Virus record (IMG/VR): IMGVR_UViG_3300046012_000093
Span: 1-62,871 of that record
Strand: one strand, 5' to 3'
Source of the DNA: a virus
Taxonomy: Duplodnaviria > Caudoviricetes
Length of the DNA: 62,871 nucleotides
The notes beneath the pieces are model-generated. The model searched no databases. It was given only the letters and a program-made list of their open reading frames with translations, and had not been told where the DNA came from. Shown here in pieces: positions 2,539 through 61,248 of this stretch; positions within the stretch are counted from its first letter, which is position 1, and each line of letters starts with the position of its first letter. The position numbers and the translations under genes were made by a program.

Positions 2539-2613
2539 GGCGATATAGTTCAACGGCAGAACGGGTGTTTTGTAATCATCAGATGACAGTTCGATTCTAG
2601 TCTTTCGCCTCCA
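2539..2613 (+). tRNA. tRNA-Thr(TGT), slightly degenerate
   Basis: GGCGATA/TTTCGCC acceptor, GTTC/GAAC D-stem, TT-TGT-AA loop, TTCGATT T-loop, encoded CCA. Confidence 0.75.
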
Positions 2614-2680
2614 ATACTACCAGAAAGCCGGTCACTGTTCTGGACTCATAGTAAATTGACCGACCAGAAAAGGAGGAGTA

Positions 2681-3262
2681 ATGGCATTCCCGCCTAATTA
2701 TACTCAATTCACGAACGGGTTCCGTCTCATCGCAGGCGATGCTCTCAATAACATCTTCAGCGGTCGCTGGGCTATTACTCCGGCAATCGCCGCAGGTAAT
2801 GGTGGTAGCACTATCAATCCTGAGGGGTTGCTTTCTGCTAACCTGACATCTACAGGTACAGCGGCAGGGACGGCCGAACAGACCCTCTTGACTTTCTCAC
2901 TTCCGGCTAAGACTCTGTCTGCCGCTAAGAAGGGCGTCAAGATCAAAGCCTGGGGCGTCACCGCTGCTAACGCTAACAACAAGACTATGAAGTTGTATTT
3001 CGGGGCCGCTGTAATTACGACCCTGACTGCCGCAACTAACAACAAAGGCTGGGAACTCGAACTTGAAGTCTATAAGACTGGTTCAAGTACTCAAGTCGTG
3101 TTCGGTAAAGGTCAAGTCGATACTACTAACGTCACCGCACTCGTGACGACTGGTACTGAGACTGATACGGCTGCCATCGTGATCAAGGTCACAGGAACTG
3201 ACGGGACTGACTCTGCCGGTGACATCGTCGCCAAGGGTCTGACTGTCGAGATGGTCAATTAA
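2681..3262 (+). CDS. putative virion (head decoration-like) protein
   Basis: Thr/Ala/Gly-rich; strong SD AGGAGG; between terL and portal. Confidence 0.5.
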   Translation: MAFPPNYTQFTNGFRLIAGDALNNIFSGRWAITPAIAAGNGGSTINPEGLLSANLTSTGTAAGTAEQTLLTFSLPAKTLSAAKKGVKIKAWGVTAANANNKTMKLYFGAAVITTLTAATNNKGWELELEVYKTGSSTQVVFGKGQVDTTNVTALVTTGTETDTAAIVIKVTGTDGTDSAGDIVAKGLTVEMVN

Positions 3263-3292
3263 CAACTTCAACCTAACAAAAGGAATCTATAC

Positions 3293-3928
3293 ATGCCCGG
3301 TTGGCTAACTAATGGTATTCAAAACGCTGCCGCATTCTACGGTGGTGAAGTCTTTCCTGCTGACACTCGCCTCTCAGGCGGTCAACAGCCTCAGTCTGAA
3401 AAGATCGGCATCCTCCCTCTCGCGGCTGCCATCAACTATTTCAACACGACATCCAGCAAGACTATGGTCGCCGGTACTCGGTACTACAGTTGGTTCGATG
3501 TCCTAGCGCCTAACCCGTCTGCCGCTGACGGTGGTGCCGTCGAGGCTGCTCCTGTAGCTCTCATTACCGGCGTCATGGTCAAGGTCGGTGGGACTGGTGG
3601 GACTGACAACTGGATCGTCGAACTCCACGACGTCAACGGTGTCCTCGTCGCTACGTCTGCCCTCGCCGGTACTCTCGCCGGTACTGCAAATACGTGGCAG
3701 CAAATCCCGTTCACCAGTACTGTCTCTCTCGTCCCTGGTGTCTACTTCTTGACTGTCCAGTCAAACGGTAACACCGCGACGTTCGCCGCCTATAACTTCC
3801 CTGCTCCTGCCTTTGCGACTACTCCGCTAGTCACAGGTTCGGTCACAGGGGTGTTCGGGACTTCGGCTAACTTCACTCCAGCTACGACCTATACCGTCAA
3901 CCTAGGTCCTATGGCTCTTCTCTACTAA
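3293..3928 (+). CDS. putative virion structural protein
   Basis: Thr/Ala/Gly-rich; SD AAGGA; followed by terminator. Confidence 0.5.
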   Translation: MPGWLTNGIQNAAAFYGGEVFPADTRLSGGQQPQSEKIGILPLAAAINYFNTTSSKTMVAGTRYYSWFDVLAPNPSAADGGAVEAAPVALITGVMVKVGGTGGTDNWIVELHDVNGVLVATSALAGTLAGTANTWQQIPFTSTVSLVPGVYFLTVQSNGNTATFAAYNFPAPAFATTPLVTGSVTGVFGTSANFTPATTYTVNLGPMALLY

Positions 3929-3937
3929 CGACAGATT

Positions 3938-3967
3938 CTGAGTCCTCTTCGGGGGACTCAGTTTCTT
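3938..3967 (+). terminator. intrinsic terminator-like hairpin
   Basis: CTGAGTCCTC-TTCG-GGGGACTCAG followed by TTTCTT. Confidence 0.75.
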
Positions 3968-4149
3968 AAAGATTTAGACAAAAGCTTTAGAGCCAGAGGA
4001 CTTCCACAGATGAATATTCTGATGCGCCAACGATATCTGGAACTAAAGAAGAGTGTCGATAAAGAAGACACGACGAAGTTCCAGACTAAGAATTCTCAAG
4101 ACGGTCTCCGTAGAACGCCTGCCAGACCACGTAGTACATAGGAAAATAT

Positions 4150-4854
4150 ATGAAAAACATCTCTGTTCTCTGTGGCGTTCTGGTGATACTCGGACTTCCA
4201 GTCGTCTCATTTGCTGCCCCTCCTAAATCCCCACCGCCTTATTACTCTGTAATTTGTGACGGGAATTCACCGACACACTGTACGGCCCCTAATTCTGACG
4301 GATCATTCAACGTTAAAGTAACCGGCGGAACTGGTGGTGCTATCAATCAAGGCACACCGAATGCCGGTGGATCGACTAGTTCTTGGTTCACGCAAGGTGC
4401 AGAAGTCCAAGGGGCTGCTGCGACTGGTGGTGTCACAAGAGACGGTTGTCGTGCAGCTACTGCAATTCCGACGGCTGTCGCCGATACTCAGGCTGTCGAT
4501 CCGATGTGTTCTAAGGAAGGTCGTGTCGTCACCGCTCCTTTTGCACCTACCGATCTTGCAGCTAAAGGCTATGCGACGACTAACGCTAACACAGCGACGA
4601 CTGTCATCGCTTCTCCAGGCGCTAGTGTCAAGTTGTACATCACTTCGATGCAATGTTTCAACACGAGTGCCGTCACTGTGACTGTAGCACTCAACGACAG
4701 TGTCGCGACAAGTCTGATTGTTCCTGCCGGTGGCGGAAACAACCCTTCCTTCTCTGTTCCTCTAGATGTCGCCGCTAATACTGCGTTGACATTTACTTCT
4801 TCGACGGCTCAGACTTCTGTCGCTTGTGCCGCACAAGGCTATAAAGGTTCATAA
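4150..4854 (+). CDS. signal-peptide-bearing Thr/Ala-rich protein
   Basis: MKNISVLCGVLVILGLPVVSFA|APP resembles a Sec signal; several Cys. Confidence 0.55.
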   Translation: MKNISVLCGVLVILGLPVVSFAAPPKSPPPYYSVICDGNSPTHCTAPNSDGSFNVKVTGGTGGAINQGTPNAGGSTSSWFTQGAEVQGAAATGGVTRDGCRAATAIPTAVADTQAVDPMCSKEGRVVTAPFAPTDLAAKGYATTNANTATTVIASPGASVKLYITSMQCFNTSAVTVTVALNDSVATSLIVPAGGGNNPSFSVPLDVAANTALTFTSSTAQTSVACAAQGYKGS

Positions 4855-5792
4855 TGAAACTCTCTAGAATCTTAAGTATAGTGGCTCTCTTGGTCTTTCC
4901 AAGTGTAGACGCTTACGCGAATTCTAGTAACTTTTCACTCCTCGGTGCGAGTTCGGCGACGTCTTCATATGTAGGTCCTGGGAATTTAGCTAGTTATAAA
5001 GCCTGGTACGGTCTCAGAGCCTATAACACTAACGTTGCCACGACAGGTAATATGCCTATCGCGAACTTCCTAAGAATCTCTGATTCACATACCTGTGACA
5101 TCACAGTAGCTCCAGACGGAAGTGGTGGTATCGGAAATACTGCGAACTGTTCAACTCCAGGAGATAACGGTCAGACTGCTTCTGCCTTCTGTAATGCGAC
5201 GACTTGTACTCTTGCGACACTCTATGACCAGACAGGCCATGGTTTTCCTATCGCGCAGACGACTGCCGCGAACCAACCTCCTATCGTCTTCAACTGTGTC
5301 GGAACGAAGCCTTGTTGGCAGATGACGAGTGCGACTATCGGTCTGATCACGGTAGGGACATACACTCCTGCTACAGGTGTCCTCACCTGGAGTATCATCG
5401 CTGATCGGACAGTCGGTACTGGAGTCGTTCGTTGGCTGCAAGCTAACACGACAGCCAACAGTATTTCTAGTGGTGGTGCGAACGTAGTCGTCCTAGAAGC
5501 TAATTCTGTTACTTTTTCTGCGGCTATGTCTGATAACCATCTTCATGCAATCACGGCAGTAGTTAACGGAGCTTCTTCAGTCATAAACATCGACGGTGTC
5601 GAAACTACAGGAACTGTCGGCGCGAGTACTACAGGAGCGGCTCTCCGTGATCTTGGTGCCGCTGCTACGACAGCCCACACTATCGAGATGGGAGTCGTAG
5701 ATAACGTCGCAGCGTCTTCGTCTCTACGTACTAGCCTTTGTCAGAATGAACAAGCTTTTTATATTTCGAGTAACTTCGGAGCTGTCTGCTAA
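4854..5792 (+). CDS. signal-peptide-bearing LamG/arabinofuranosidase-B-like lectin-fold protein
   Basis: MKLSRILSIVALLVFPSVDAYA|N; WYGLRAY...LYDQTGHG...QTTAANQP...INIDG motifs. Confidence 0.55.
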   Translation: MKLSRILSIVALLVFPSVDAYANSSNFSLLGASSATSSYVGPGNLASYKAWYGLRAYNTNVATTGNMPIANFLRISDSHTCDITVAPDGSGGIGNTANCSTPGDNGQTASAFCNATTCTLATLYDQTGHGFPIAQTTAANQPPIVFNCVGTKPCWQMTSATIGLITVGTYTPATGVLTWSIIADRTVGTGVVRWLQANTTANSISSGGANVVVLEANSVTFSAAMSDNHLHAITAVVNGASSVINIDGVETTGTVGASTTGAALRDLGAAATTAHTIEMGVVDNVAASSSLRTSLCQNEQAFYISSNFGAVC

Positions 5793-7933
5793 TGAGTGAA
5801 CTCTTTTTAGACGACGACTCAGAAACATCAGAAGAGCATTCTGATCTTATCCGTGAGGCCAAGCAGCGGTTCAAGCGTTCTGATCTCTGGGAATCTATCG
5901 CTCGGATGCGTTTCCTCGAAGATTTCAAGTTCTACAACGCCGACGCCTATAACATGTATCAATGGCCTGACACGGCCAGGAATGCCCGTGGTTTCGGTAC
6001 TGGTGACGAACGTCCTTGTCTGACTGTCAACAAGTCAGCCAAACACTGTGACATGGTCATCAACGACTCTCTCCAGAACAAGACTTCTATCCGTATCAAG
6101 CCTGTCGGAGACGAAGCGTCTTATGACGCTGCCGAGGTCCTAGAGGGTATCGTCCGTCATATTGAATATGCCTCGGACGCCCAGAGCCATTACAGTAACG
6201 CCTTCAAGACACAAGTCATCTCTGGATTCGGTGTCCTCCGTGTCACGACTGACTACGTCGACGACTCTTCGTTCGATCAAGACCTGAAGATCACATCTAT
6301 TCCTGATCCTTTGTCAGTCTATATCGATCCAGACTCTGTCGAACCAGACGGTTCAGACGCTCGATATGCCTTCGTCTTCACTGACATGCCTCGTGACGAA
6401 TTCGAGGTTCAATATCCTGAGTATAAAGACAGAATGATCCATACAGCGTTAGGCAATGACGACGGTTGGATCGCTGAGAAACATGTCCGTATCGCTGAGT
6501 ACTTCTACAAGAAGGAAATCCGAGACAAACTGATAGTCTTCACTGATCCTGTCTCTAAGGCTCAGACACCGATCTTCAAGTCAGACACTTCTGGTTGGAA
6601 GGGTGCTCTAAGGAAAGCCCTGAACGAACAACTAGACGATCCTATGACTAGGACTCGTGACGTCATCCGTAACCAGATCAAGTGGTGTAAGATCGTCGGT
6701 GACGACATCCACGAGATGAAAGACTGGGCAGGAGAGACCATTCCAATCGTCCCTGTCGTCGGTTACAAGACTGTCATCGAAGGTGAGATGGACCGGAAAG
6801 GTCACATCAGGGCGATGATCGATTCTCAACGGATGATCAACTATAACGCCTCTGCCGCCATCGAATACGGTGCTCTCCAGACTAAGACTCCTTGGGTCGC
6901 TCCTGCGGCTTCAATTGAGGGTCAAGACGCCTGGGGTAACGCTAACCTAGTGAATTATTCCGTCCTCGTCTGGAACCATATGGACGACGACGGCAATCCT
7001 ATCCCTCCTCCTATTCGACCGATGCCTCCGTCTGGAGCTCCGTTGTATCAAGAGGGTATGAAGAACGCCTCTGACGACATGATGATGGTCTCAGGACAGT
7101 ACGCTCCACTTCTGGGTCAACCTAGTAACGAACGTTCTGGGACTGCGATCAACGCGAGACAACGTCAAGGCGAGAACGCGACTTATCACTTCATCGATCA
7201 CCAAGCCAGAGCGATTCGTCGGTTAGGTAAAATCATCATCAACCTGATTCCGAAGATTTATGACACCCCTCGTGTCATCCACATCATGGCTGAAGACGGG
7301 ACACTCTCGACTGTCAAACTCGATCCTCAAGCTAAACAGGCTTTCGAACAGAAGAGAGCTGCCGCTGCCGACGTCATCGAACAGGTCATCCTGAACCCGA
7401 CTATCGGTAAGTATGAAGTCATCAGTGACGTCGGTCCTGACTATGCGACGAGGAGACAAGAGGCGTTCAACGCACTGTCTCAGATCGCTACTGTCAATCC
7501 GTCGTTGATGGCTGTCATCGGTGACCTAGTTCTACTCGCTGCCGACTTCCCGATGGCTGAACAAGCCGCCGAACGTCTGAAGAGAATGGTTCCTGCACAG
7601 GCACTAGGAGAAGAGAATCTCCAGGTCCAGCAACTCCAGCAAGAACTCCAGGCTTCACAAGCTCTGTCATCTTCTATGGCTGAGAAGTTGACTGAACTCC
7701 AGTCGAAGATCAGGAACAAGGACATCCAGAAAGACGTCGACGTCTATAAGGCTATCACTGACAGGATTGACGTCCTGCTTCAGACCCAACCTTCGAAGAC
7801 AGACATCCTCCAGTTCCAACATGATCTCGCTATGCAAGAACATGCCGGTAATTTGACGATGGCTTCTAAAGCTCTAGACAACGCCCTCGCACCAGAAGCT
7901 GCTGGTGAGATGGACAACGCGGATTCAGTTTGA
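5792..7933 (+). CDS. portal protein, P22 gp1-like
   Basis: 713 aa; QWP...RPCLTVN, QRMINY, SGTAINARQRQG, GKYEVISDVGPDYATRRQE. Confidence 0.93.
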   Translation: MSELFLDDDSETSEEHSDLIREAKQRFKRSDLWESIARMRFLEDFKFYNADAYNMYQWPDTARNARGFGTGDERPCLTVNKSAKHCDMVINDSLQNKTSIRIKPVGDEASYDAAEVLEGIVRHIEYASDAQSHYSNAFKTQVISGFGVLRVTTDYVDDSSFDQDLKITSIPDPLSVYIDPDSVEPDGSDARYAFVFTDMPRDEFEVQYPEYKDRMIHTALGNDDGWIAEKHVRIAEYFYKKEIRDKLIVFTDPVSKAQTPIFKSDTSGWKGALRKALNEQLDDPMTRTRDVIRNQIKWCKIVGDDIHEMKDWAGETIPIVPVVGYKTVIEGEMDRKGHIRAMIDSQRMINYNASAAIEYGALQTKTPWVAPAASIEGQDAWGNANLVNYSVLVWNHMDDDGNPIPPPIRPMPPSGAPLYQEGMKNASDDMMMVSGQYAPLLGQPSNERSGTAINARQRQGENATYHFIDHQARAIRRLGKIIINLIPKIYDTPRVIHIMAEDGTLSTVKLDPQAKQAFEQKRAAAADVIEQVILNPTIGKYEVISDVGPDYATRRQEAFNALSQIATVNPSLMAVIGDLVLLAADFPMAEQAAERLKRMVPAQALGEENLQVQQLQQELQASQALSSSMAEKLTELQSKIRNKDIQKDVDVYKAITDRIDVLLQTQPSKTDILQFQHDLAMQEHAGNLTMASKALDNALAPEAAGEMDNADSV

Positions 7934-8253
7934 TGCAAAAGATTTGTCACCGCCTCGTCGCTGAGACAGCGAAAGACATCGCTAGATCAGTCTACGAAGC
8001 CTGTGCCCCTAACAACGATTTCTATCGAGAATATCCAGACCAACAGACTTTTGTCAATCGACAATGGTCGTATTTCATCGGTGACGCCCGTCGTGCTCTT
8101 ACTACGATGTTGAAGCCTAAGTCAGATTCTGATCCGAGAAATCCAGAGTTCTACTACTCAGAACATATCAGAGACGAAATCTTCGAGGCTCTAGTAGCCG
8201 AAGGTGAGATGAAAGGACCCGCACCATTACCATCGTCAAGAGTCCTGAACTGA
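7930..8253 (+). CDS. hypothetical protein
   Basis: 107-aa ORF overlapping portal stop. Confidence 0.6.
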   Translation: MMQKICHRLVAETAKDIARSVYEACAPNNDFYREYPDQQTFVNRQWSYFIGDARRALTTMLKPKSDSDPRNPEFYYSEHIRDEIFEALVAEGEMKGPAPLPSSRVLN

Positions 8254-24763: not shown

Positions 24764-25671
24764 TTAGATTTCACAATATCCAGCGACACAGGCGAGTTCT
24801 TGTGTGCCTGTCGTAGTATCTTCAAACTCATATTCACTCAGTCTCGACCAGTCGATATTCTGGGGCATTCTCAAGACAGCGAGATCATATTCTTCTTTCG
24901 TACACTCTTGATACGGAGCTTGTCGATAAGAGTGTTCTGAGTATGGCAAGAATGACACACCCGACAAGACGTCGAAGTTGTCAAAGACCCAGGCCCCGAC
25001 AGAGAGCCATTCGTCTTCTTTTACGTTGACGGTGATGCTCGGCTTATGTTCACACCAAGCGTTCTGTACATTTTTCCAAATCTCCAAGTGATCCAGAGAC
25101 CCGAGCTGTTCTCGAACCATAGCCTTCTCAGGCGCTTTCTGAGGAAAGTAAAACACGACCGTATCTTGCGGCTTTGTGACGTCAGGCTCATTAGGAATTC
25201 CTTCATCGATCATGAGTTGTGTCAATGGGTCTTTACGATCCATCCTGACAGAACGAATATAATACTCAGACCAGCGAGGATGAATCCCACTAGCTGAATC
25301 GACCAACTGAGACACCGTCCCTGACGGTTTGACACAAGTGATAGCAGTAGATACAGGGATACCAAGAATAGAAGCATATTCTTGATTCGTCTCTATCGCG
25401 ACTTCCTTGAGTCTTTGCAACAGACCCATATCTCGGCTGAGGTCGTCATGATCAAGAATACCAGTAAGAGATACACCTAGTAGTCTTTCTTCTTCTGTGT
25501 TGGTTTTCCAGATTCTACGGAGATACTTAAAGTCCGTAAGAGTCGATTGGAGCGTTCCAAGGATTGTAGCCAGACGAACTTTTCGTCGTAGGTCGTCTTC
25601 TGTATCTCCGGCTCGGACAACGACTTCGGACAGATTGCACATTTGGAAATTTCGAAGAATTATTTCGCTAC
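24764..25671 (-). CDS. nrdJ: class II (B12-dependent) ribonucleotide reductase, exon 2
   Basis: (C)SEIILR..CNLSEV, TCVKPSGTVS, C-terminal ACVAGYCEI. Confidence 0.92.
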
Positions 25672-26445
25672 CCCACACAACAAGTATCAATAACTTTCTT
25701 GTCGTGCGCTGGACTATCGCATATATTAAATATGTTTCCAGTTCTTTCCACTACGGATAAAACCAATAACATATGGCTTGACATTAAACTTTACTGAAAT
25801 TTCTTCATTTGATAGACCTAATGGTAATAATTCGTATTTTATGATACGGACATTTTCATTTGTTAAGATAGCACGAGGATTCTTGTCCCCTTGAACTTTA
25901 CCGAGATAAGAATCTTTATGTTTTTGAAAGGCTATCTTTTGTCTTAATGATCGTTTTTCAGTAGAGTCTTTAATCCCTATAGCGATCTTAGTTGCTATAG
26001 ATGTCGCCTGTTTGTGTTTATTCGAATTCTCTAATAAATGGTACCACTCTGAATTTACACCCAGATAACCACCGCGTTGAGAATTCCATCCAATATTCTC
26101 ATCAGGACGAATATTGTTCTCAATCATGAGTGCGTCTTCTAAAGATAGATTTTCACATAAAATCTCTTTAATCAAGCTATCCCAACCATATTTATTTATG
26201 GCGTACTTGAAATGGGATTTTTGTTTATTAGACTTATGTGCGTATAACCTATTTCTGAAGTTCTTAGTGATTCCAATATATCCTGATTCATATGGATCAT
26301 TATGATCTTCTAAATGAATCCAGTAAACACAATACAATAATATCCCTCTCGCTTAGTCTCTCACGCTGGCATTACCCTTGCGCCCTGTCGGTTTGTTATT
26401 ACCTTCCAAGTCAATCAGAGAGGGTTTTAAATCCCCATAGTGTTT
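25672..26445 (-). mobile_element. group I intron in nrdJ (774 nt)
   Basis: P1 ATCCCT/GGGGAT with U.G at the 5' site; GAGACTAAG and GATAGTCC (P7); P9 GCACGACAAG/CTTGTTGTGT; terminal G; splicing restores GTNP-C-SEI. Confidence 0.9.
25726..26337 (-). CDS. intron-encoded GIY-YIG homing endonuclease with C-terminal HTH
   Basis: CVYWI...YIGIT...R; AT-rich; C-terminal NPRAILT...KNWKHI. Confidence 0.85.
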   Translation of the reverse strand: MYCVYWIHLEDHNDPYESGYIGITKNFRNRLYAHKSNKQKSHFKYAINKYGWDSLIKEILCENLSLEDALMIENNIRPDENIGWNSQRGGYLGVNSEWYHLLENSNKHKQATSIATKIAIGIKDSTEKRSLRQKIAFQKHKDSYLGKVQGDKNPRAILTNENVRIIKYELLPLGLSNEEISVKFNVKPYVIGFIRSGKNWKHI

Positions 26446-27403
26446 AGGGATTAGTTCCAAACTCGTGCTCTACGTCACGTCTTCCATTCAATCCTGCTTG
26501 TCGCTGGCTTGCGGCACGAGAGAATAGACCCCGTTCTCCCGATCTACTAGCGTATATAGATTTCCACTCATCAAGAAATAGTCCGACAGATGGACGTTCT
26601 TCATAGACGGCCGAGTTGTTACTGAGGGCTCTTTGGACGTCTTCTTCCCACCACGCACCTTGCTTCGCATCACGCATCCTTTGATCTGATAAATCCGAAA
26701 GAGAAATCATCGCAGAACGACGAACACCGCCGACTACTACTACCTCAGCGATTTTACATAAGATGTCGTGGCATTCTAATGTATTGAGACGACGTCCTGC
26801 GGCTTTTCTAAATGCCGCAACAGTGAATCCAAAGAGTGCGTCAAGGGGGCCAGGTCCACTAGAACGACCTCCAAAAGTCTTAAGTCTTGACCCGGCTGGC
26901 CTGAGGCAACTAAGGTCCCATGAAGGTTCTTGGCCTGCATAAAGAAGCGAGATAAGCTCTCGAAAAGCTCGGCACCATCCTGCCTTACTGTCTTCGACGG
27001 AAATGACAGTTCCGGATTTTTCGAAGTGTTCATTTACGACAGGCAGCCTTTCGACGTACTTACTTTCTACCGAAAAACCTACCCCACTACCATTCATCAA
27101 GATGTGCATCGTCTCGTCGAATGAGCGGGGTGAGTCTATTGGTAGATAAGAACAATTATAGGCACAGCCATGATCACGAGTCAATCCTGGTCCGGCAGAC
27201 ATTAGAATTCTCATCGACGGCATGACTTCTAGATTATAGATAGCCTGTCGAAGTTCATCAAATGGAATATCTTGCCCTTGGAATCTATCTCGAAACCAAT
27301 CAATCGTTCGATCTACAGTTTCATCCCAAGTTTCCCTACGGTTGTATTTGTCGATCCATCGTGAGTACCGACTAAGGTGTATAAATTTCTGGTAGTCGTT
27401 CAA
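26446..27403 (-). CDS. nrdJ: class II ribonucleotide reductase, exon 1
   Basis: SRYSRW, PSMR, YNCSY, GSGVGFS, VVVGGVRRSAMI, FGTNP. Confidence 0.92.
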
Positions 27404-30563: not shown

Positions 30564-30791
30564 TCAGATATCCTCGATGACACGACCGTGCTCAGACTGG
30601 AGAGCCCCGATGACATCGATGTCTTCTTCGTCGAAGAACCCTTGTTCACGGGCTAGGTCACAGGCGTAGTCATAGCCGTCCCAGTTGTCGACACCGGCTT
30701 CTTCGAGATACTCTAGCCATTCGGCCCTGACGAGCAGGTTGTTATACTCTTCGGCTGAGATAGTTACAGTTTCTTGTTCTTGATTTTCCAT
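30564..30791 (-). CDS. acidic protein of the GVDNWxGY family (possible RecBCD inhibitor)
   Basis: VTISAEEY...LEEAGVDNWDGY; function from recall only. Confidence 0.45.
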   Translation of the reverse strand: MENQEQETVTISAEEYNNLLVRAEWLEYLEEAGVDNWDGYDYACDLAREQGFFDEEDIDVIGALQSEHGRVIEDI

Positions 30792-30792
30792 A

Positions 30793-31137
30793 TCAGTTCT
30801 CAAATGCTTTCAACAGTTCTAGAGCTTCATCTGCATCCCCTAGGATCAACTGATCCAGAAGATTTTGGTATCCAAGTCGAAGTTCTTCTAATTCCTTGTC
30901 AAGTCTAACGGTGTCTTGTTGTGACATATCGCTGAAGACGACATATTGATACCAATAGTGAGAGTTTTGGTCGTCTCGTCCGCGATTATTAATAGAGAAG
31001 CGACCATTTTCGAGAGCTTGTAGTCGTTCTCCACAAGTCATCGGAGTGATCTTGTACTTGTCATTGACGGCAGTACGTCTCTTACTATAGATCGCAGTAG
31101 CTCGTTCACGAGCATACTTCAATTGTGTTCCGTTCAC
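30793..31137 (-). CDS. hypothetical protein
   Basis: 114 aa; coupled operon. Confidence 0.55.
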   Translation of the reverse strand: MNGTQLKYARERATAIYSKRRTAVNDKYKITPMTCGERLQALENGRFSINNRGRDDQNSHYWYQYVVFSDMSQQDTVRLDKELEELRLGYQNLLDQLILGDADEALELLKAFEN

Positions 31138-54361: not shown

Positions 54362-54565
54362 TCATATGAATGACGTAGACGAGACCCAACATACAAGAAA
54401 TATCGGCCATATCAGACCCCCGAAGACGAACGGAAGTGCTGTCAGTTCGGCTGGTAACAGTCCATTTGAATCCTTAGGGTTTTCCTCAGATGCGATGTAA
54501 CACCCGAAGATACACACCAAGAACCAACCCGTCAGCCAAATCCAGAAGACGTCTAGGAGTGTCAT
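54362..54565 (-). CDS. two-TM membrane protein
   Basis: hydrophobic, 67 aa. Confidence 0.6.
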   Translation of the reverse strand: MTLLDVFWIWLTGWFLVCIFGCYIASEENPKDSNGLLPAELTALPFVFGGLIWPIFLVCWVSSTSFI

Positions 54566-54783
54566 GACTTCACCAGGGTTATCGTCGTCTTGATGTCGTC
54601 AGTTGGGACAGCCGTCCCTTTGTATTCGATGAAGCATCCAGCCCCTAGGACGTACTTCGATTCCATCCCGAGTGCCACTCCAGTCTGATGACACCTGTAA
54701 CGACTCCCGGCATAGAGAATACCGAAGCCAAGGCCGAGCGCGAAGGCATAGATGCCTAAGATGACTAGGACGGTCTTTCGCAT
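54562..54783 (-). CDS. membrane-anchored protein
   Basis: MRKTVLVILGIYAFALG; SD GGGG. Confidence 0.55.
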   Translation of the reverse strand: MRKTVLVILGIYAFALGLGFGILYAGSRYRCHQTGVALGMESKYVLGAGCFIEYKGTAVPTDDIKTTITLVKS

Positions 54784-54795
54784 GTCATTCCCCGA

Positions 54796-54887
54796 TCTGA
54801 AAGGACACACAGTCGCGCGTCTACTAGGATTCGAACCTACCGAGTACCGTGATTAACTCGGGGTCGTAGCCTGTGTGTCCATTTAGA
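54796..54887 (-). ncRNA. candidate tRNA-like (T-loop) ncRNA in a processing stem
   Basis: GGACACACAG/CTGTGTGTCC stem, CCGAGT/ACTCGG hairpin, TAGG-TTCGAAT-CCTA T-arm. Confidence 0.6.
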
Positions 54888-55041
54888 AAGTACCGGGTGA
54901 TTTCTACTGTTGGCTCACCCGGCGAAGCCTCACCACATCTGCCGATCTATGCCCGGCTTGCTTCCGACAAGTCGGAGGACTCCGCTGGCGTCTCGACAGG
55001 TATGGAATAAACCCCGCAAGGGGGTGTCTTAGGAGACCCTC

Positions 55042-55236
55042 TCAGGGCTTCCAATTCTTTCTCAGTAGGCCGTCAGACATCGGCTGGGACGGTGCTCTCA
55101 CCGTCAGTCGATTCAGTTCGTCCAGCATACCGCCGGATATCTTATAGAGTGTGCAGAGTGAGTCCATCGTCGGTCCCATCTCTTCAACTTCATCGGCGAG
55201 CAGCTTTAACGCGGAAACTATATCTGCCCGGTTCAT
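55042..55236 (-). CDS. hypothetical protein
   Basis: 64 aa; SD AGGTG. Confidence 0.55.
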   Translation of the reverse strand: MNRADIVSALKLLADEVEEMGPTMDSLCTLYKISGGMLDELNRLTVRAPSQPMSDGLLRKNWKP

Positions 55237-55239
55237 AAA

Positions 55240-55416
55240 TCACCTACGAAGAAAAAGGAGTACTTGAGTCACGGTATATGACGTCAGTCCGGCGAGCATC
55301 ATCAACCAGAATGAGCCCCCGGATACCGACGATATCACTAGGAGGATGACTGCCATGACAGCGACGCAAAACAAGTGAGAAACTACGAAGAATACCAAAA
55401 TGTCGATGATCCGCAT
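55240..55416 (-). CDS. 58-aa membrane protein
   Basis: MRIIDILVFFVVSHLF...LLFLRR; below ORF-track cutoff. Confidence 0.5.
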   Translation of the reverse strand: MRIIDILVFFVVSHLFCVAVMAVILLVISSVSGGSFWLMMLAGLTSYTVTQVLLFLRR

Positions 55417-55419
55417 CGT

Positions 55420-55584
55420 CTACCCGATCTGGAAATGAATATAGAACGCCGGTTGATAGTCGTCTAGGCAGTATCTCCCCCGCCCTATGACGAAAGCCCA
55501 CGGTCCCCATGAGACCTGGAAGTCCCACGAGTCCTCGCCGACTAGGTTCCGATACCGTCCGTGGCGGATTCTTGGGAGGCCCAT
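55420..55584 (-). CDS. 54-aa hypothetical protein
   Basis: SD AGGGA; MGLPRIRHG... Confidence 0.45.
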   Translation of the reverse strand: MGLPRIRHGRYRNLVGEDSWDFQVSWGPWAFVIGRGRYCLDDYQPAFYIHFQIG

Positions 55585-55718
55585 GTCTGTCCCTGTTCCC
55601 TATGACGATCTATCATGATTTCTTTTTGAGCGGGCTTCTCACCCGCACGGACAGACTGTCCGACCTGTCTGTCCCCTGACTAGTACTCAGGGACGCTCCT
55701 AGTTGCGTGGATTCTGAT

Positions 55719-55809
55719 TGAGTGTATCGAAAGGACGGACCAAGCCGGACATTCGTGGGGGGCGGGAAGTCTAGTTAAAGACAGCCGATCCGTCCATTTG
55801 ATACACTCA
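55719..55809 (-). ncRNA. candidate small RNA in 21-bp processing stem
   Basis: TGAGTGTATC-A-AA-T-GGACGGA / TCCGTCC-T-TT-C-GATACACTCA. Confidence 0.55.
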
Positions 55810-55813
55810 CTAC

Positions 55814-55923
55814 CTGTAAGAGAGAGCACAGAGGGTCTGCCTTATCCCCTGTCTAGACGAGGTCGGGCTGCGCTGGCAATGCGTTTAAGACGGGTTCTAG
55901 ACAGTCTGTGCTCACTGTTACAG
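55814..55923 (-). ncRNA. candidate small RNA directly 3' of tRNA-Tyr
   Basis: CTGTAA-C-AG-T-GAGCACAGA / TCTGTGCTC-T-CT-C-TTACAG plus CTGTCTAGA/TCTAGACAG. Confidence 0.55.
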
Positions 55924-55924
55924 A

Positions 55925-56010
55925 TGGTGGGAGGGTGTGGAGTTGAACCACTCCGAGAGACTCGGCGACAGATTTACAGTCTGTCTGCTAGACCGCCAGC
56001 TTTCCCCGCC
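55925..56010 (-). tRNA. tRNA-Tyr(GTA)
   Basis: ACAGA-CT-GTA-AA-TCTGT anticodon arm, long variable arm, GGTTCAACTCC T-arm, ACCA end. Confidence 0.88.
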
Positions 56011-56191
56011 CATAGTTAGTGAAAGGACAGTTTCACGCCATGTCCAGGGCGATGCGATGCACACTTGGGGCTCTGCCTTTCCCTAGTGAGTTGTCCTTTA
56101 AGCCGGACCGGCTATGATCCTAACGCATGACGACTCTCCCTCTTCAAGAGTATGCCTAGCCCCAACGCCAGACATACACTAGAAGAGGGAC

Positions 56192-56365
56192 CTAGTAGGG
56201 TTCGCTGATATAACAGCCCTGATTCAAAGGCTTTGCGGGGACATACCGGCTAAGCATAATGGTAGGAATCCAGCCACTCGCCCTAACGAGTGTATACCAT
56301 TGTCCCTTGTTCCTGTCAGTGACTCTGACAATAGGACAGATGTCGCCGTCAGACGCTCTGATCAT
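56192..56365 (-). CDS. 57-aa hypothetical protein
   Basis: perfect SD TAAGGAGG before ATG 56365. Confidence 0.6.
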   Translation of the reverse strand: MIRASDGDICPIVRVTDRNKGQWYTLVRASGWIPTIMLSRYVPAKPLNQGCYISEPY

Positions 56366-56465
56366 AGCCGCCTCCTTAGAAGAAAAGGTGGACAGTTTAC
56401 CGCCGTGTCCAGGGCTTCCACCGGGGCTAGTGGGCGAGCCCCGGCTTAAGGTCGGCCGTGATAGA

Positions 56466-57548
56466 TCAGGCGGCGGCTTCCTCACCTTCGCCTTCGGCTT
56501 GGTTGATGTCGGCTTGTTGAAGTTCAGCCGGAGTTTCCACGTCAGTCTCCGGTTCGGGAGTCGCCTCGGCCGTCGGGGCGTCCTGGACGTCAGGATGCGG
56601 GAGAGCCTTGCCGTCACGAGCGGCAATCTCATTCTCCCCGCGCTTCCTCGCCAGTTCCCGGGCGGCTTGCGCCTTGGCGGCGATAGTCGATTGTTCGGCC
56701 ATCAACGCCTTGACTTCGACGGGATTCGCCATAGCGAACATGAACGCCCTTCTCGCCCAATGGATGGCGTTCAGGAGGGTTTCCGGATCACCTTCGACGC
56801 CCTTGAACTGACGGGACTCCTCTCGGGAAGGGTTGCCGTTGTTCTTCATGGCGTTACCCATGATGGCGAGGGCTCCTCCGTTGCCGACTCCAAGGAGAGT
56901 CATCACGGCTTCACTGGAGAACGGCTTCCGGTTGTCGGTATTGTTACCGGGATTCGCCCTCTCGGCCTTCGCCCCGGCGAGGTACTCAGTCACCGGCTTT
57001 GCCGTGGTGAGCCCTTGCCACGCGTCATCCTTGTTCCAGCCCTCTTTCATGGTGAGCTTGGCGACGCCACCGGCCTTGACCCTGTCGGTCTCCACCTTGA
57101 ACGGAAGCTTCGCCTCACGGAGCCACGTCTTCAGGCCGTCCAGATGGTAGCCGGACGGAATCGACTGGAGCAGCCGAAGCATCAAGGACGTATCGCCGTA
57201 GAGCTTGGCGTGGACAGCCGATTGGACTGCGTTTTCCAGGATCATGGAGTCGAGCGTCTTACCCGTCGCCTTGATCTTGTCCTGGTGAGCCTTGACAAGC
57301 TTGGCATTGCCTTTCTTGTCCTCACCCCAAGGCTTGGTGGAGATTTTCTGCCCGTTGATGGTCAGCGTCTCGGGCAGAGTGAAAGCTTGGGGAGTCGCCG
57401 TGGCGACTTGCTGGCCCTCGGCTTGACCTTCCGGCTGGCCTTCGACGTTGGCGTCGATGACAGTAGCCGTACCTTCGATGGTCGAAGGATCATCGGCGGC
57501 CCCGGCGAGTTCCCTTGCCAGTTCAGATTGCGACTTTTGGCGTTCCAT
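56466..57548 (-). CDS. conserved-type early phage protein with acidic disordered termini
   Basis: HAKLYGDTSL..L...P.G....LKTW motif; GC-rich codons; SD GGAG before ATG 57548. Confidence 0.75.
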   Translation of the reverse strand: MERQKSQSELARELAGAADDPSTIEGTATVIDANVEGQPEGQAEGQQVATATPQAFTLPETLTINGQKISTKPWGEDKKGNAKLVKAHQDKIKATGKTLDSMILENAVQSAVHAKLYGDTSLMLRLLQSIPSGYHLDGLKTWLREAKLPFKVETDRVKAGGVAKLTMKEGWNKDDAWQGLTTAKPVTEYLAGAKAERANPGNNTDNRKPFSSEAVMTLLGVGNGGALAIMGNAMKNNGNPSREESRQFKGVEGDPETLLNAIHWARRAFMFAMANPVEVKALMAEQSTIAAKAQAARELARKRGENEIAARDGKALPHPDVQDAPTAEATPEPETDVETPAELQQADINQAEGEGEEAAA

Positions 57549-57598
57549 TTCAACTATCTCCGTTTTCATGGTGACACGGTATGTGTCATGCCTAAGCG

Positions 57599-57768
57599 AA
57601 TGCCTAGGGGAGACTAGATCAAGTTGGAGAATGTAACGGGGTTTTCAAACGCTATTCGCTCGGGGATTATGCCGACTAACGTTGCGGCTACCTTCTGAAT
57701 CTAACGTTTCCCGACGCCCACCTAGACACGTTCTGGACGTATAAATGATCTAGTCACCTCTAGGCATT
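57599..57768 (-). ncRNA. candidate ncRNA enclosed by 23-bp stem
   Basis: AATGCCTAG-A-GG-T-GACTAGATCA / TGATCTAGTC-T-CC-C-CTAGGCATT. Confidence 0.6.
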
Positions 57769-58142
57769 ACCTAGAGTGAGACTTGTTTACCCTTGGGCTT
57801 ACGCCTGTAGTAATACGAGTCTCTGGCCTGTTTTGCTGCACCCGCCTCTTATGGCGTCCTGATAGTGGCATCCGTGAGGCCATTTCAAGTTCTCACGGCT
57901 ATCAGCTTTGACAGCGTCCCTAGGATTCCGTCCTAGTAGGATTTACGGATTGTCTCACCATTTCGCATCACTGGCGCACCGTTTAAGGATTTGCCAGTGA
58001 CCTAAGGTAAGGTCCCACCACGATGGCAAGAGGGTAACACTTGAGCCCTTGCCCGGCCCCCCGATAGGAACGGCCTCAATTCCGTTCCCCTTACTCACCC
58101 CTCCTAAAGGGTGTATCTCAGACTGTCAACACCCCTTGAAAA

Positions 58143-58628
58143 TTAATCTTCAAAGGACGGAAGGTCGCGGCGACGGTTCCAAGTTGTCGGCCCGCGCGTC
58201 TTATCGTTAGGGTCCGACCGACCATCACGATAGAGCGTAGCCTTTCCAGCGTTGAAACCGGCTTGCGAAAACCTCTCGATTCCAGGGCGAGACCGTTCGG
58301 AACCGCTCGCCATTCCAGGGCCGTGAAAGCCCCTTGTGTGAGTGTTCCCTAACAGCCTCTCTTGCGTCACATAAGGTCGAATAGGCGCGAGAGTCAGTGC
58401 TTGCGAGTGGCGGACAGCCCCGGCGACGATTGCCGCCTTCATGGCCTCGCGTTCTCGCTTCCCGAGTCTCTGCGACTTGACCTTAGAGACCTTGCTGAGA
58501 GCATCGCCTAGGACGTCGCGCTTAGGGACAGGCCCCTTGCCTTGACGTTCAGCGGCGGATTTCCCGGCAAGGTTTACTAGCCCGATACGCCCGGTAGGGC
58601 GCTTAGCGACTTCGTCGCGTCTGGACAT
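58143..58628 (-). CDS. basic hypothetical protein
   Basis: SD AGGGG before ATG 58628; Arg/Lys-rich. Confidence 0.6.
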   Translation of the reverse strand: MSRRDEVAKRPTGRIGLVNLAGKSAAERQGKGPVPKRDVLGDALSKVSKVKSQRLGKREREAMKAAIVAGAVRHSQALTLAPIRPYVTQERLLGNTHTRGFHGPGMASGSERSRPGIERFSQAGFNAGKATLYRDGRSDPNDKTRGPTTWNRRRDLPSFED

Positions 58629-58773
58629 AGTTATCCCCTGAAAGGTTGACATGTTCACGGTTAGGCCGAGACGAGTCAGACCACCGGAGCTAAAAGTCCC
58701 GAGGGAGAGGCCCGTCGCGGGATACACCGCCTAGCTGGCATATGACGCCAGCAAACCCCTTATCGGCTCAGAC

Positions 58774-58955
58774 TGTGGCGGGAATGTGGCAAGAATGAGG
58801 TATTTTTGCCTTAATTCAGGGTCTCTCGCGTCATTATAATGAGTGGAACAGAAGTTGGCCTTTTGTTCGCTGTTTGTTCACCTTAGCACATGATTGTGGC
58901 GAGAATGAGGCAGAATTGTGGCAGAAATAAGGTCATATTGTGTCCAAATTATGTC
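58774..58955. repeat. two arrays of phased 11-bp direct repeats (TGTGGC-like)
   Basis: units at 58774/785/796 and 58895/906/917/928/939/950. Confidence 0.75.
58865..58879. promoter_or_regulatory. alphaproteobacterial LexA (SOS) box
   Basis: GTTC-GCTGTTT-GTTC (GTTC-N7-GTTC). Confidence 0.6.
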
Positions 58956-58966
58956 ATAGAGTAGAC

Positions 58967-58991
58967 AAAGAAAAAGCCCCACTAGGGGGCT
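58967..58991 (-). terminator. intrinsic terminator
   Basis: AGCCCC-CTAGT-GGGGCT-TTTTCTTT. Confidence 0.8.
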
Positions 58992-59079
58992 CGGCTGTCA
59001 GTCTAAGGAACGATCTATCATGAATGGTCTAGTAGAGACAAGAGAGAGGACAGTTTAGAGCCATGTCCAGGGCTTCCGT

Positions 59080-59286
59080 TTACTGTGAGACATGATGGCT
59101 GTAATCGAAGTCCGAGCTTAGAGACATCACTAGAGGTAGATGAACCTTGAGGAATTCGTGGATATGCTTACGAGTCCCTGTCCCTTCAATGACCGTCAAA
59201 GGGATAGGTTCGAACGGAAAGGATATCCACTCCTTTCCTACTTTGACGCGAATATCCGTGTAGATGATTGTCACAGTCTTAGACAT
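59080..59286 (-). CDS. early hypothetical protein
   Basis: 68 aa; coupled. Confidence 0.6.
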   Translation of the reverse strand: MSKTVTIIYTDIRVKVGKEWISFPFEPIPLTVIEGTGTRKHIHEFLKVHLPLVMSLSSDFDYSHHVSQ

Positions 59287-59494
59287 CGGCCCTGTCCTTT
59301 ACTTGCTCGTCAATCCAGAGTCTTGCGTGGATTATGTTGTCACCTCGCCAGACTAGTTCGGAAAGCTCACCTTCATAGACTATGACAGAGAGTCCGCCAT
59401 GTCCTGATAGGTGAGCCGAGATTTCATATCCCCTGTAGTCTTGCTGATAGCAGTTGATGACTTCAAGGGCTGAGTCGTAAGGCCGCCTCTTCAT
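59279..59494 (-). CDS. early hypothetical protein
   Basis: 71 aa; ATGA coupling. Confidence 0.6.
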   Translation of the reverse strand: MKRRPYDSALEVINCYQQDYRGYEISAHLSGHGGLSVIVYEGELSELVWRGDNIIHARLWIDEQVKDRADV

Positions 59495-59619
59495 GGCCTG
59501 TCCAGTATGAGACAGACGAGGTTGAAGAGTAAGTGTAGTGCAATCCTGATAATCGCATAGGCGACATACAAGATGACTACAGCCGCGACTAACAGAATCA
59601 TAGTCAAGATTAAGAACAT
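59491..59619 (-). CDS. 42-aa hydrophobic peptide
   Basis: SD AAGGAG; MFLILTMILLVAAVVILYV... Confidence 0.55.
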   Translation of the reverse strand: MFLILTMILLVAAVVILYVAYAIIRIALHLLFNLVCLILDRP

Positions 59620-59678
59620 ATCTTTCTCCTTTTACTTACTAGTTCGGAACACAAGGAAGGGGACTCTATTGTTTTAGA

Positions 59679-59852
59679 TTAGTGTCTGAACGTGTATTTC
59701 CACCATCCCCCGGTATCCTTACAGTAACCGAAGTGTAACAGTGCGCCTAGACAGACTAGGAGTTGTAAGTCTCCGGCTTTGTTACGCCAGAGACCGAATT
59801 CGATGAAGATGTCCGGTGAGAAAGTCTTAAAGGCGTGGATTATCTTAGTCAT
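59679..59852 (-). CDS. early hypothetical protein (stem-enclosed cassette 3)
   Basis: SD AAAGG before ATG 59852. Confidence 0.6.
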   Translation of the reverse strand: MTKIIHAFKTFSPDIFIEFGLWRNKAGDLQLLVCLGALLHFGYCKDTGGWWKYTFRH

Positions 59853-59936
59853 TGGGAGCCTTTCTATTGAAGAGAGAGTCCCCTTGCTAGTGTTCCGTCC
59901 CGGAATGCTGGAGTAATAGGGAGTCATGATAGATCG

Positions 59937-60128
59937 TTAGTTCAAGTCTTCTATTTCTGAGATTAGCCAGCCGTTGACAGTCAAGAATTGACAGGCGTCT
60001 GCGTCATAAGCTTTGAACGCATCGTCAAAGTCTGTGTCTGGCTTGACAAATAGGTGTAGGTCATAAGTAGAGATATAGACCATGACCTCTTTAGTGTAGC
60101 CTTGGAGTAGTGCTTTGTTGTCTGACAT
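59937..60128 (-). CDS. early acidic hypothetical protein (cassette 2)
   Basis: SD AAGGA; 63 aa. Confidence 0.65.
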   Translation of the reverse strand: MSDNKALLQGYTKEVMVYISTYDLHLFVKPDTDFDDAFKAYDADACQFLTVNGWLISEIEDLN

Positions 60129-60218
60129 AGGATGTCCTTTCTAGTTCTAGTCTAGGAAGACCCCCTATTGCTTCAACATTCCGGGGGGATGCGCTGGAGT
60201 AACGAGGCTGATAGGTGA

Positions 60219-60443
60219 TTAGTGACTTTCGGCGAAGTCTGAGACTTCACGTCCTGTAGGTTCGTGGTCGAATGTCTTACGATAGACCTTGATCTTGTAA
60301 TCTTCACGGTCGGCTTGGTCTCTCCAGCCTTCAATCTCGGCTGATACGTCAGTCTTGTCTGTAGAACCGAACGTCTCAGTCCAGAGGTATTCTTTCGACG
60401 GCCCGGACTCTTCGGCGAAGCATAGAGCGAGATAGTATTTCAT
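60219..60443 (-). CDS. early acidic hypothetical protein (cassette 1)
   Basis: SD AAGGA; 74 aa. Confidence 0.65.
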   Translation of the reverse strand: MKYYLALCFAEESGPSKEYLWTETFGSTDKTDVSAEIEGWRDQADREDYKIKVYRKTFDHEPTGREVSDFAESH

Positions 60444-61248
60444 GGGGAGTTTCCTTCTAGTCTCAGTGGCTCTCTAGAGCCTGTCTGAGCGTCTGACATA
60501 GAGAACAGCCCCGTTGCTTCAACGCATCCCTTGAGAGACCTAGAAGAGGCTTAGAACTGGCCTTTCAGCCATAGCTTCGCCCGAGGTCTCTCAGTAGCTT
60601 CACGATGAGAAAGAACGAAATCCTTCCGTTCACCTTGTCGTTAGTTCTGTCAACCCCTTTCCGTCAAGGAAGCTTTACTTTACATGACAGAGTCGATCAC
60701 GATTGAGTTACTTAACGTATGAGTTAACTAACCCCGGAAAGAACTGTCTCTCGATGTTAGCGACGTAACATGAAAGAGCTATTTAACCAACACGTTAACT
60801 GTTCACATGGGATGAAACGAGAGAGCATTCGCAGCTTGATTGAGCCTTGAAAGTGTATGGATACTCTCTCGCTACCTCAGATTCCCCAGCGAATACCGTC
60901 TAGAAGACACAGAGAGCAGGCTACAGAGGCTTTGACTGATTTCGGGTACTCTCCCCTATGAACAGACCAAACAACGTCAGTGAGCTTCTACTGAAGACTA
61001 CTCATAGTTAACAGTTGAGTCAACTATATCGAAGTCTAGACCGACCAAGGGGAAGTAATTCTTTACTTGGGATGACTTCAGTTTACTTGAGGGGGAGGGG
61101 AGGGGCCTTGGCAGGGGGGATTGACGGTGATATGCACCACCCTCTTGACCTATATAAAATTTCAGGAATAAAAAATAAGAAAATTCTATAAAAATACAGA
61201 AATATCCATAAAAATACACAAATATACACAAAATACCCGTCTTAGGGG

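Follow-up and report, generated by a model that had tools for sequence, protein, structure and literature searches.

Why would the first small genes of a phage transcript each be framed by a long inverted repeat, with one frame abutting the next? The question is raised by an uncultivated tailed phage (Duplodnaviria; Caudoviricetes), IMG/VR record IMGVR_UViG_3300046012_000093, in which an array of such repeats lies at the start of the minus-strand gene block. The window analysed here is that whole record, 62,871 bases, rated 74% complete. A sequence-only reading of it had described seven pairs of inverted arms folding around one shared interruption (a 1x1 mismatch, 2 bp and a second 1x1 mismatch) and had suggested that ribonuclease III (RNase III) cuts there to release each enclosed gene or RNA. 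Our best reading, to which we assign a probability of roughly one half, is likewise that the stems of this early transcript are processing sites for the RNase III of the host.

An inverted-repeat listing of the window returned all seven arm pairs where they had been placed, and gapless alignment of the minus-strand duplexes gave the succession helix, 1x1 mismatch, 2 bp, 1x1 mismatch, helix in 7/7 pairs. Read along the 5' arm, the two central base pairs are AG in four cases, AA in two and GG in one, as described, and alignment confirmed that the arm sequences differ between cassettes; the arms of cassettes 1 and 2 have a 10-nt central stretch in common. Two more stems came to light that had been overlooked. 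The elements are listed here, with each duplex given from outer to inner helix.

60186..60530, minus strand: cassette 1, arms 60506-60530/60186-60210; 11 bp, A.C, AG, C.A, 10 bp; encloses open reading frame (ORF) 60219-60443 (ORF1, 74 amino acids (aa)).
59899..60185, minus strand: cassette 2, arms 60159-60185/59899-59925; 12 bp, A.C, AG, C.A, 11 bp; encloses ORF 59937-60128 (ORF2, 63 aa).
59645..59897, minus strand: cassette 3, arms 59875-59897/59645-59667; 8 bp, U.U, AG, C.C, 11 bp; encloses ORF 59679-59852 (57 aa).
57599..57768, minus strand: stem 4; 9 bp, A.C, GG, U.U, 10 bp; 124 nt noncoding; just upstream of ORF 56466-57569.
55808..55929, minus strand: stem 5; 8-12 bp, C.C, AG, U.U, 9 bp; 72 nt noncoding.
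55719..55809, minus strand: stem 6; 10 bp, A.C, AA, U.U, 7-11 bp; 49 nt insert with a C-rich loop.
54796..54887, minus strand: stem 7, weak, arms 54871-87/54796-812; 3 bp, A.C, AA, U.U, 10 bp; 58 nt insert.
56137..56190, minus strand: hairpin 8, newly found and local; 9 bp, U.U, AG, U.U, 11 bp; 6-nt loop; the same core.
56109..56370, minus strand: stem 9, newly found and long-range, arms 56347-70/56109-32; a 2x2 internal loop in place of the two-mismatch core.

In the six strong pairs the outer helices measure 8-12 bp and the inner ones about 9-11 bp; stem 7, with its outer helix of 3 bp, falls below the thresholds of both the geometry scanner and the strict finder described below. Each of the three ORF cassettes does enclose one ORF together with its Shine-Dalgarno (SD) site (AAGGA or AAAGG), with the SD/start 22, 30 or 62 nt past the 5' arm and the stop codon 8-11 nt ahead of the 3' arm. 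These cassettes stand back to back, cassette 2 adjoining cassette 1, and the gaps, previously put at 1-2 nt, are 0-1 nt once the arms are extended. The inserts of stems 4-7 are noncoding, as had been stated. No tRNA was called at a T-loop-like stretch in the insert of stem 7, and a tRNA search in 16 related loci, which asked whether small inserts are tRNAs, found none. The 5' arm of stem 9 covers the ATG of ORF 56192-56365 (57 aa), and its predicted energy is -43.2 kcal/mol on the minus strand versus -31.7 kcal/mol on the plus strand.

A chance origin of the stems was rejected. Among the ten longest inverted repeats of the whole window (arms <=600 nt apart), eight lie within 55.7-60.5 kb and six are pairs that had already been noted. 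A scanner for the exact geometry (>=19 helix bp) gave 7 hits, compared with a mean of 0.35 and a maximum of 2 in 40 dinucleotide shuffles. With a strict stem finder (>=19 pairs, <=2 mismatches, <=3 G:U), both strands of the window yielded 15 hits; the two-mismatch core was present in 7/7 minus-strand hits of the region and in 0/4 hits elsewhere. We take the stems to be non-random because of the excess over shuffles and this contrast. An initial permissive finder (17 pairs, 3 mismatches, G:U allowed) was dropped, as it produced hundreds of background hits. When the RNA spanning all three ORF cassettes (60540-59635, 906 nt) was folded, both the minimum-energy and the centroid structure retained the three long-range stems, with z = -5.71 and 0/20 shuffles folding as well. 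We also rejected a K-turn (there are no G.A pairs) and a CRISPR or retron (there are no repeats and no reverse transcriptase).

Is this architecture peculiar to one phage? The region had no match in a nucleotide search against 50,697 phage records, its large terminase protein (TerL) has a top match of 54% identity among cultured phages (Brevundimonas phages), and among sequencing runs it is contained in a single soil metagenome DNA run, with no RNA run listed. A portal search identified four related contigs (G001-G004, 73-78% identity). A DNA search of the early region in five relatives gave nothing above chance, and protein-anchored searches with ORF1 and with the 367-aa protein encoded after stem 4 returned no loci. 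ORF1 homologues in G001 (31% identity) and G002 (judged by eye from the translation) are nevertheless enclosed by arms unrelated in sequence, which form 11-12 bp, C.C or C.U, CG, C.C or C.U and a further helix. In G003, an ORF2 homologue (67% identical) lies inside unrelated arms of 13 bp, U.U, GU, C.U and 11 bp, followed by two more ORF cassettes, each 2 nt apart, with perfect arms of 26 and 25 bp; two cassettes in G002 are also separated by 2 nt. The ORF in the first cassette differs, being ORF1 in the window and G001 and ORF2 in G003, and relatives have a long-range stem at the same place as stem 4. G004, a contig that ends in terL, has 0 stems. Alignment matches to ORF2 were found in G003 alone among viral contigs and in two short metagenome contigs, one of which is cut at its 5' end.

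For a broader sample we aligned TerL from 80 loci, out of at least 572 relatives, and searched these with a strand-symmetric finder (Watson-Crick seeds, >=18 Watson-Crick pairs, <=4 other positions, arms <=800 nt apart). It found 68 stems in 345,004 nt upstream of terL versus 0 in 576,585 nt of terL and downstream sequence. At least one stem occurs in 34/80 loci; 53 loci have >=2 kb of upstream sequence. The window, G001 and the 80 loci together hold 73 distinct stems once identical arms are removed, 71 of them in early regions. A set of 223 TerL relatives from bacterial genomes (mostly in Alphaproteobacteria metagenome-assembled genomes or prophages at <=63% identity, plus short contigs that could be mis-binned) includes none with the stem architecture, showing only host-repeat-like stems. 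These comparisons of sequence show the architecture to be common to an uncultivated phage clade, in which arm sequences are replaced while pairing and core are kept.

The composition of the stems indicates the level at which they act. Outside the cores, early stems contain 58 G:U pairs on the early strand versus 14 A.C, which would be G:U on the other strand. Both are equally detectable because the finder is strand-symmetric, and because G:U favours the transcribed strand by 58 to 14, the structure acts as RNA of the sense strand. Small inserts are also biased: CCCC occurs 31 times and GGGG 3 times at near-equal C and G content, CCCC is present in 14 of the 33 small stem-enclosed inserts compared with 3 for GGGG, and predicted unpaired positions number 292 C versus 156 G. 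Compensatory change, for which the sequence-only reading had looked to related phages, is seen in a sequence-related family of 14 stems that have a common 5' word and enclose a conserved small ORF with the motif YFGPFVS. Inner-helix columns of this family carry 3-5 Watson-Crick pair types and are almost always paired. The 14 stems were selected for pairing, and we gauged the resulting bias by listing every occurrence of the 5' word: a stem was called at 13/18, one more has a G:U-rich stem (L082) and one is cut by the contig end. Together, the G:U asymmetry, the C bias of the inserts and the covariation of this family demonstrate selection on the RNA structure of the sense strand. The expectation of a strand-specific, RNA-level architecture conserved in related phages was borne out by the G:U asymmetry and by unrelated arms with the same core.

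The YFGPFVS stem loci, all upstream of terL, are L058, L060, L062, L065, L066, L068, L074, L078, L081, L082, L085, L086, L089, L090, L093, L096 and L109. The conserved 5' arm of this family is also able to form a 7-bp local hairpin with a GTTA loop, again with covariation, and the long-range stem and the local hairpin may compete. The 33 small inserts include 55719-55809, 57599-57768 and 54796-54887 in the window and others in L044, L051, L052, L060, L068, L082, L092, L110 and further loci; in many of them the single-stranded loops are rich in C and poor in G. Some look like anti-SD sequence, which makes the inserts candidate phage small RNAs that would pair with G-rich ribosome sites.

The core itself occurs in 25/71 early stems. 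Successive mismatches are separated by two paired positions in 25/58 gaps (next commonest spacing, 7). All 50 mismatches of the 25 cores are UU, UC, CU, CC, CA or AC, with no G among the 100 mismatch nucleotides. On its 3' side the central dinucleotide is followed directly by a pyrimidine in 25/25 cores for the 5' arm and in 24/25 for the 3' arm, and the central dinucleotide of the 5' arm is purine-purine in 17/25. The core lies 7-14 bp from either helix end, with the exception of L053, where it is 2 bp from the inner end. The position near the helix centre, about 10 bp from each end, and the match of the mismatch types to published Escherichia coli RNase III sites both support the RNase III reading.

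These properties resemble RNase III substrates in several respects. A helix of about two turns (~20 bp or more) is present in seven window stems, which have 21-27 positions and 19-25 pairs; stem 7 falls short of this length. At 85 in vivo double-cleavage sites reported for E. coli, the two positions between the cuts are ~90% paired, with a preference for G-C (PMC6212723), and if the core is the site, its central positions are paired and include a G-C pair in 19/25 stems. Table S4 of the same paper gives the flanking positions B and B' as mismatched in 18/86 and 14/86 sites, none with G, and these mismatches are UU, UC, CU, CC, CA or AC except for one A.A (PMC6212723). The spectrum of core mismatches in the phage stems is the one at those E. 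coli positions (PMC6212723 Table S4).

Several observations weigh against cleavage at the core. It is not obligatory, being absent from 46/71 early stems, and 10 stems are free of any mismatch. In the other metagenome contig with an ORF2 homologue (L197 496-684, 73% identity), the gene has no enclosing arms and overlaps the next ORF, so stems have been gained or lost within the wider group. The positions beside the presumed cuts are both mismatched in 25/25 cores, whereas E. coli sites are ~80% paired at B/B' (PMC6212723 Table S4) and Bacillus subtilis sites are reported as >90% paired at -2/+2 (PMC11780869). A doubly mismatched core is atypical because most sites in these two species are paired beside the cut, and a review states that target-site mismatches can confine cleavage to one strand (PMC3867540). 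Each of the 25 stems was scored with the E. coli pair-frequency matrix, one short hairpin in 11 registers and the others in 13. In 8/25 the register of the core came first and in 18/25 it was among the top three; in 17/25 it was not the best. With the thresholds of the E. coli paper, 17/25 cores score >=-25.5 and 25/25 score >=-33.8, but random perfect 24-bp helices score -19.7 +/- 1.0, always above -25.5. We rejected the score as a classifier, since any long helix passes; because random helices do so, it mainly reflects helix length and the tolerance of such mismatches at B/B'. The matrix is that of E. coli and may not match the specificity of RNase III in the host of this phage, and position B was set on the loop side as the geometry of 2-nt 3' overhangs would have it.

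Could the stems be functional RNA elements that are not cut at the core? The central mismatches would then halve a helix of ~25 bp into parts of 8-12 bp that evade RNase III or the sensing of double-stranded RNA (dsRNA), while the stems insulate cistrons, slow 5'-end-dependent or 3' exonucleolytic decay, or bring a stop close to a start and so let ribosomes re-initiate. The pairing beside the cut in most known RNase III sites speaks for this, as does the statement in the review that target-site mismatches can limit RNase III action (PMC3867540). Arm placement allows translation while the stem stays closed, and a helix is also best halved at its centre. However, 10/71 early stems pair perfectly over 19-44 bp and a further 19 contain just one mismatch; such helices would remain exposed to RNase III. 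Breaking a helix requires neither a spacing of exactly 2 bp nor mismatches limited to pyrimidine and A.C types, and genuine E. coli cleavage sites show these types at the corresponding positions, so that we consider uncut stems unlikely.

We regard it as improbable that the core is bound or cut by a different two-fold symmetric factor, be it an RNA-binding protein or an endonuclease, supplied by the host or by an unrecognised early phage gene such as that of the basic 161-aa protein (58143-58628). Family matches are lacking for most early proteins, leaving room for such a factor, and the asymmetry of the core (a purine-rich centre on the 5' arm, RR in 17/25, opposite an all-pyrimidine 3' arm) is something that symmetric RNase III does not need. 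Yet even the first ORFs of the transcript lie inside stems, and any phage enzyme would first have to come from unprocessed RNA, and no family with such a site was found in our literature search. A Pfam scan of 88 ORF products of the window (21 + 67, in two rounds) detected no nuclease or dsRNA-binding domain that could fill the role. Since these 88 proteins gave no match to an RNA polymerase, RNase III domain, dsRNA-binding domain or RNA ligase, the host enzyme is the natural candidate. The inverted repeats could also act on DNA, as ends of mobile cassettes or as inversion or recombination sites, their 2-bp core being reminiscent of the crossover sites of serine invertases. Cassette content varies between relatives, and the arms of cassettes 1 and 2 do have their 10-nt stretch in common. 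We nonetheless consider this explanation remote: no single transposase or recombinase could recognise all of the differing arms, none was found among the scanned proteins, arms 200-400 bp apart cannot readily extrude, and a DNA function does not predict a G:U to A.C ratio of 58 to 14 for the transcribed strand.

The plus strand carries structural genes at 0.2-24 kb and the minus strand everything at 24.5-60.5 kb; the stem array lies at the start of this minus-strand block and contains small ORFs with SD sites and one tRNA-Tyr. The following features mark the presumed early transcript.

60648..60653, minus strand: TTGACA upstream of the array, putative -35 element of a host-type early promoter, read by eye and without a good -10.
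58974..58992, minus strand: intrinsic-terminator-like hairpin and T run, closing the first early unit.
58124..58129, minus strand: second TTGACA, putative -35 element, after ORF 58143-58628 and before ~550 nt of noncoding sequence.
55925..56010, minus strand: tRNA-Tyr (GTA), whose 3' CCA end enters the outer helix of stem 5.

G001 has a similar TTGACA ahead of its own array, and TTGACT at the position equivalent to the second box. A sigma-70 consensus scan called no promoter at either TTGACA box, and because the scan missed it we propose a promoter at 60648..60653 only as a candidate. Gene order, small SD-bearing ORFs, the TTGACA boxes, the terminator and the lack of a phage RNA polymerase suggest that the minus strand at 54.8-60.6 kb is an early polycistronic RNA made by host RNA polymerase.

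On this basis we infer cleavage, its position, the enzyme and the effect on stability as follows. The flanks of three small ORFs and of several small noncoding RNAs pair over 21-27 bp on the sense strand, as the strand asymmetry and the relatives show, and host RNase III, whose two-fold symmetric dimer extends over about two helical turns, would bind each helix and cut both strands 3' of the central dinucleotide. This would release monocistronic mRNAs with ends kept paired by an inner helix of 9-11 bp and a 2-nt 3' overhang, as well as stem-capped small RNAs, many with C-rich loops. Cutting of stem 5 would free the 3' side of tRNA-Tyr, whereas in stem 9, with its arm over a start codon, cleavage would open the duplex. 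Since the arms stop >=22 nt short of the start codon and resume 8-11 nt past the stop, ribosomes could still translate a cassette that stays closed. More tentatively, and as a possibility that we hold with some doubt, every early ORF and small regulatory RNA in a podophage clade might be cut from one precursor at a pyrimidine-mismatch core that is independent of sequence. If so, the string of cassettes would be a bacterial counterpart of the processing of clustered pri-miRNAs, and the small C-rich RNAs may mask host SD sequences. To call the array a delivery system, as had been done, goes beyond the data.

Long-range pairing of flanks is familiar from precursor ribosomal RNA (pre-rRNA), in which an RNase III cut in the stem releases the functional RNA. 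The phage stems follow the same flank-pairing logic, and they differ in their cargo, small ORFs and small RNAs, and in their tandem arrangement, in which neighbouring helices lie 0-2 nt apart. Phage T7 has an early polycistronic transcript made by the host polymerase, with double-strand elements between cistrons, that is processed to mRNAs with paired ends. The array would likewise place duplex elements in a host-polymerase early transcript. In our own folds, at intergenic positions that we take to be those of the T7 sites, the T7 elements fold locally, as hairpins that have loops of 4-5 nt and internal loops that are larger and asymmetric; here, in contrast, the arms lie 200-300 nt apart around whole ORFs and the core consists of two symmetric 1x1 mismatches. 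The only local element, hairpin 8, has a symmetric internal loop, and the long-stem finder detected 0 stems in the T7 early region (400-8000).

The T4 tRNA cluster, in which tRNAs are co-transcribed with small structured RNAs and RNase III takes part in processing, offers a similar combination of a phage tRNA with small structured RNAs; we know of no shared stem core described for it. No stem belonged to an Rfam 15 family at gathering score. The archaeal bulge-helix-bulge motif consists of 3-nt bulges 4 bp apart, whereas the arms here are gapless with 1x1 mismatches 2 bp apart. Both are symmetric interruptions of a long-range stem, and in archaea this break is used by a dimeric endonuclease to release rRNA, according to the review (PMC3867540). 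Promoters, SD sites and phage type are, by contrast, bacterial here. The same review describes T7 as a heavy user of RNase III (PMC3867540).

Long-range sites are also reported within bacterial mRNAs. Intramolecular RNase III sites of E. coli have C1-C2 distances of 16 to 1080 nt (PMC6212723), and long-range stems in mRNAs are described for B. subtilis as well (PMC11780869). Their central 2 bp are paired and G-C rich, and flanking pyrimidine or A.C mismatches occur, as in the phage stems; they differ in being scattered, mostly starting decay, forming no arrays that bracket cistrons, and not having a double flanking mismatch as a rule. Correia repeat-enclosed elements of Neisseria are transcribed inverted repeats that form stems bound or cut by RNase III and alter the expression of neighbouring genes (PMC2649163). 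They constitute one repeated mobile-DNA sequence family, whereas each cassette here has its own arm sequence; in place of the shared, strand-neutral terminal repeat of Correia elements or miniature inverted-repeat transposable elements, the arms differ and G:U outnumbers A.C by 58 to 14.

The claim that such a system had not been described holds in part. Our full-text literature search found no paper on phage arrays of ORF-enclosing stems with this core, while phage early RNase III processing and long-range mRNA sites were already known. What that search did not turn up is the individual enclosure of each early cistron and small RNA by abutting helices with a shared pyrimidine-mismatch core, conserved across a clade. 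Should the cores be cut, the clade would supply over 25 natural stems, unrelated in sequence and alike in geometry, as a test set for RNase III site choice, and for whether flanking pyrimidine mismatches fix or speed cleavage. Cleavage would also give phages a second route from one early transcript to separately stabilised messages, in which long-range stems leave both mRNA ends paired, compared with the 3' hairpins of T7. The stem-capped RNAs with C-rich loops would, if real, be candidate phage regulators of host translation, and the design, with arms clear of the ribosome site and abutting helices, could be used as an insulator in synthetic operons. Even if uncut, the stems would define an RNA architecture that is conserved and strand-specific in a large soil-phage group without cultured members.

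Other structures accompany the array in the early region. A structured leader (60534-60631, minus strand) precedes cassette 1, with an 8-bp hairpin at 60631-60613 right after the TTGACA box and a stem of ~8-9 bp around ~40 nt (about 60534-60592). Hairpin-rich noncoding sequence of ~550 nt (57570-58120, minus strand) separates the second TTGACA box from the 367-aa ORF. It has no Rfam match, L026 (3880-4460) and L197 (1020-1667) carry counterparts in the same position, and it may represent a leader or a large structured RNA. Within 54500-60800, a search with Rfam 15 gave only tRNA at gathering score, and four other hits at a permissive threshold had E-values of 0.57-4.5. Outside the early region, a second tRNA-like match (Rfam tRNA, 38.1 bits) directly follows the large terminase gene (2539-2609, plus strand), where ARAGORN made no call.

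Short repeats also occur in the early region. A 25-nt motif, able to fold as a 5-bp hairpin with an 11-nt loop, is present in three copies on the minus strand of the early region only (59048-59072, 56390-56414 and 56025-56049; 0 in 100 shuffles), one copy following ORF 59080-59286, one preceding ORF 56192-56365 and one 14 nt ahead of tRNA-Tyr. Its role could be that of a promoter, of a processing signal or of an antitermination site. The exact 12-mer ATGATAGATCGT has three early-region copies, at 59010-59021 and 55605-55616 (minus) and 59926-59937 (plus). With <=2 mismatches, ATGATAGATCGT occurs 12 times, not above shuffles (mean 7.4). Several copies and variants of GCCACAAT, possibly operator sites, lie between the terminator and ORF 58143-58628 (58780-58960, minus strand).

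Elsewhere, the window encodes small and large terminase subunits, P22-type portal and coat proteins, a family A DNA polymerase and a primase-helicase, together with metabolic genes for ribonucleotide reductase, ThyX, NAMPT, PRPP synthetase and an amidoligase/glutamine-amidotransferase cluster. A GIY-YIG homing-endonuclease gene (25726-26337) interrupts the ribonucleotide reductase, dividing it into two ORFs (24764-27403, minus strand). The product of 30564-30803 (minus strand) is homologous to the RecBCD inhibitor gp5.9 of T7 (Pfam E = 3.6e-18), which hints at a host with RecBCD.

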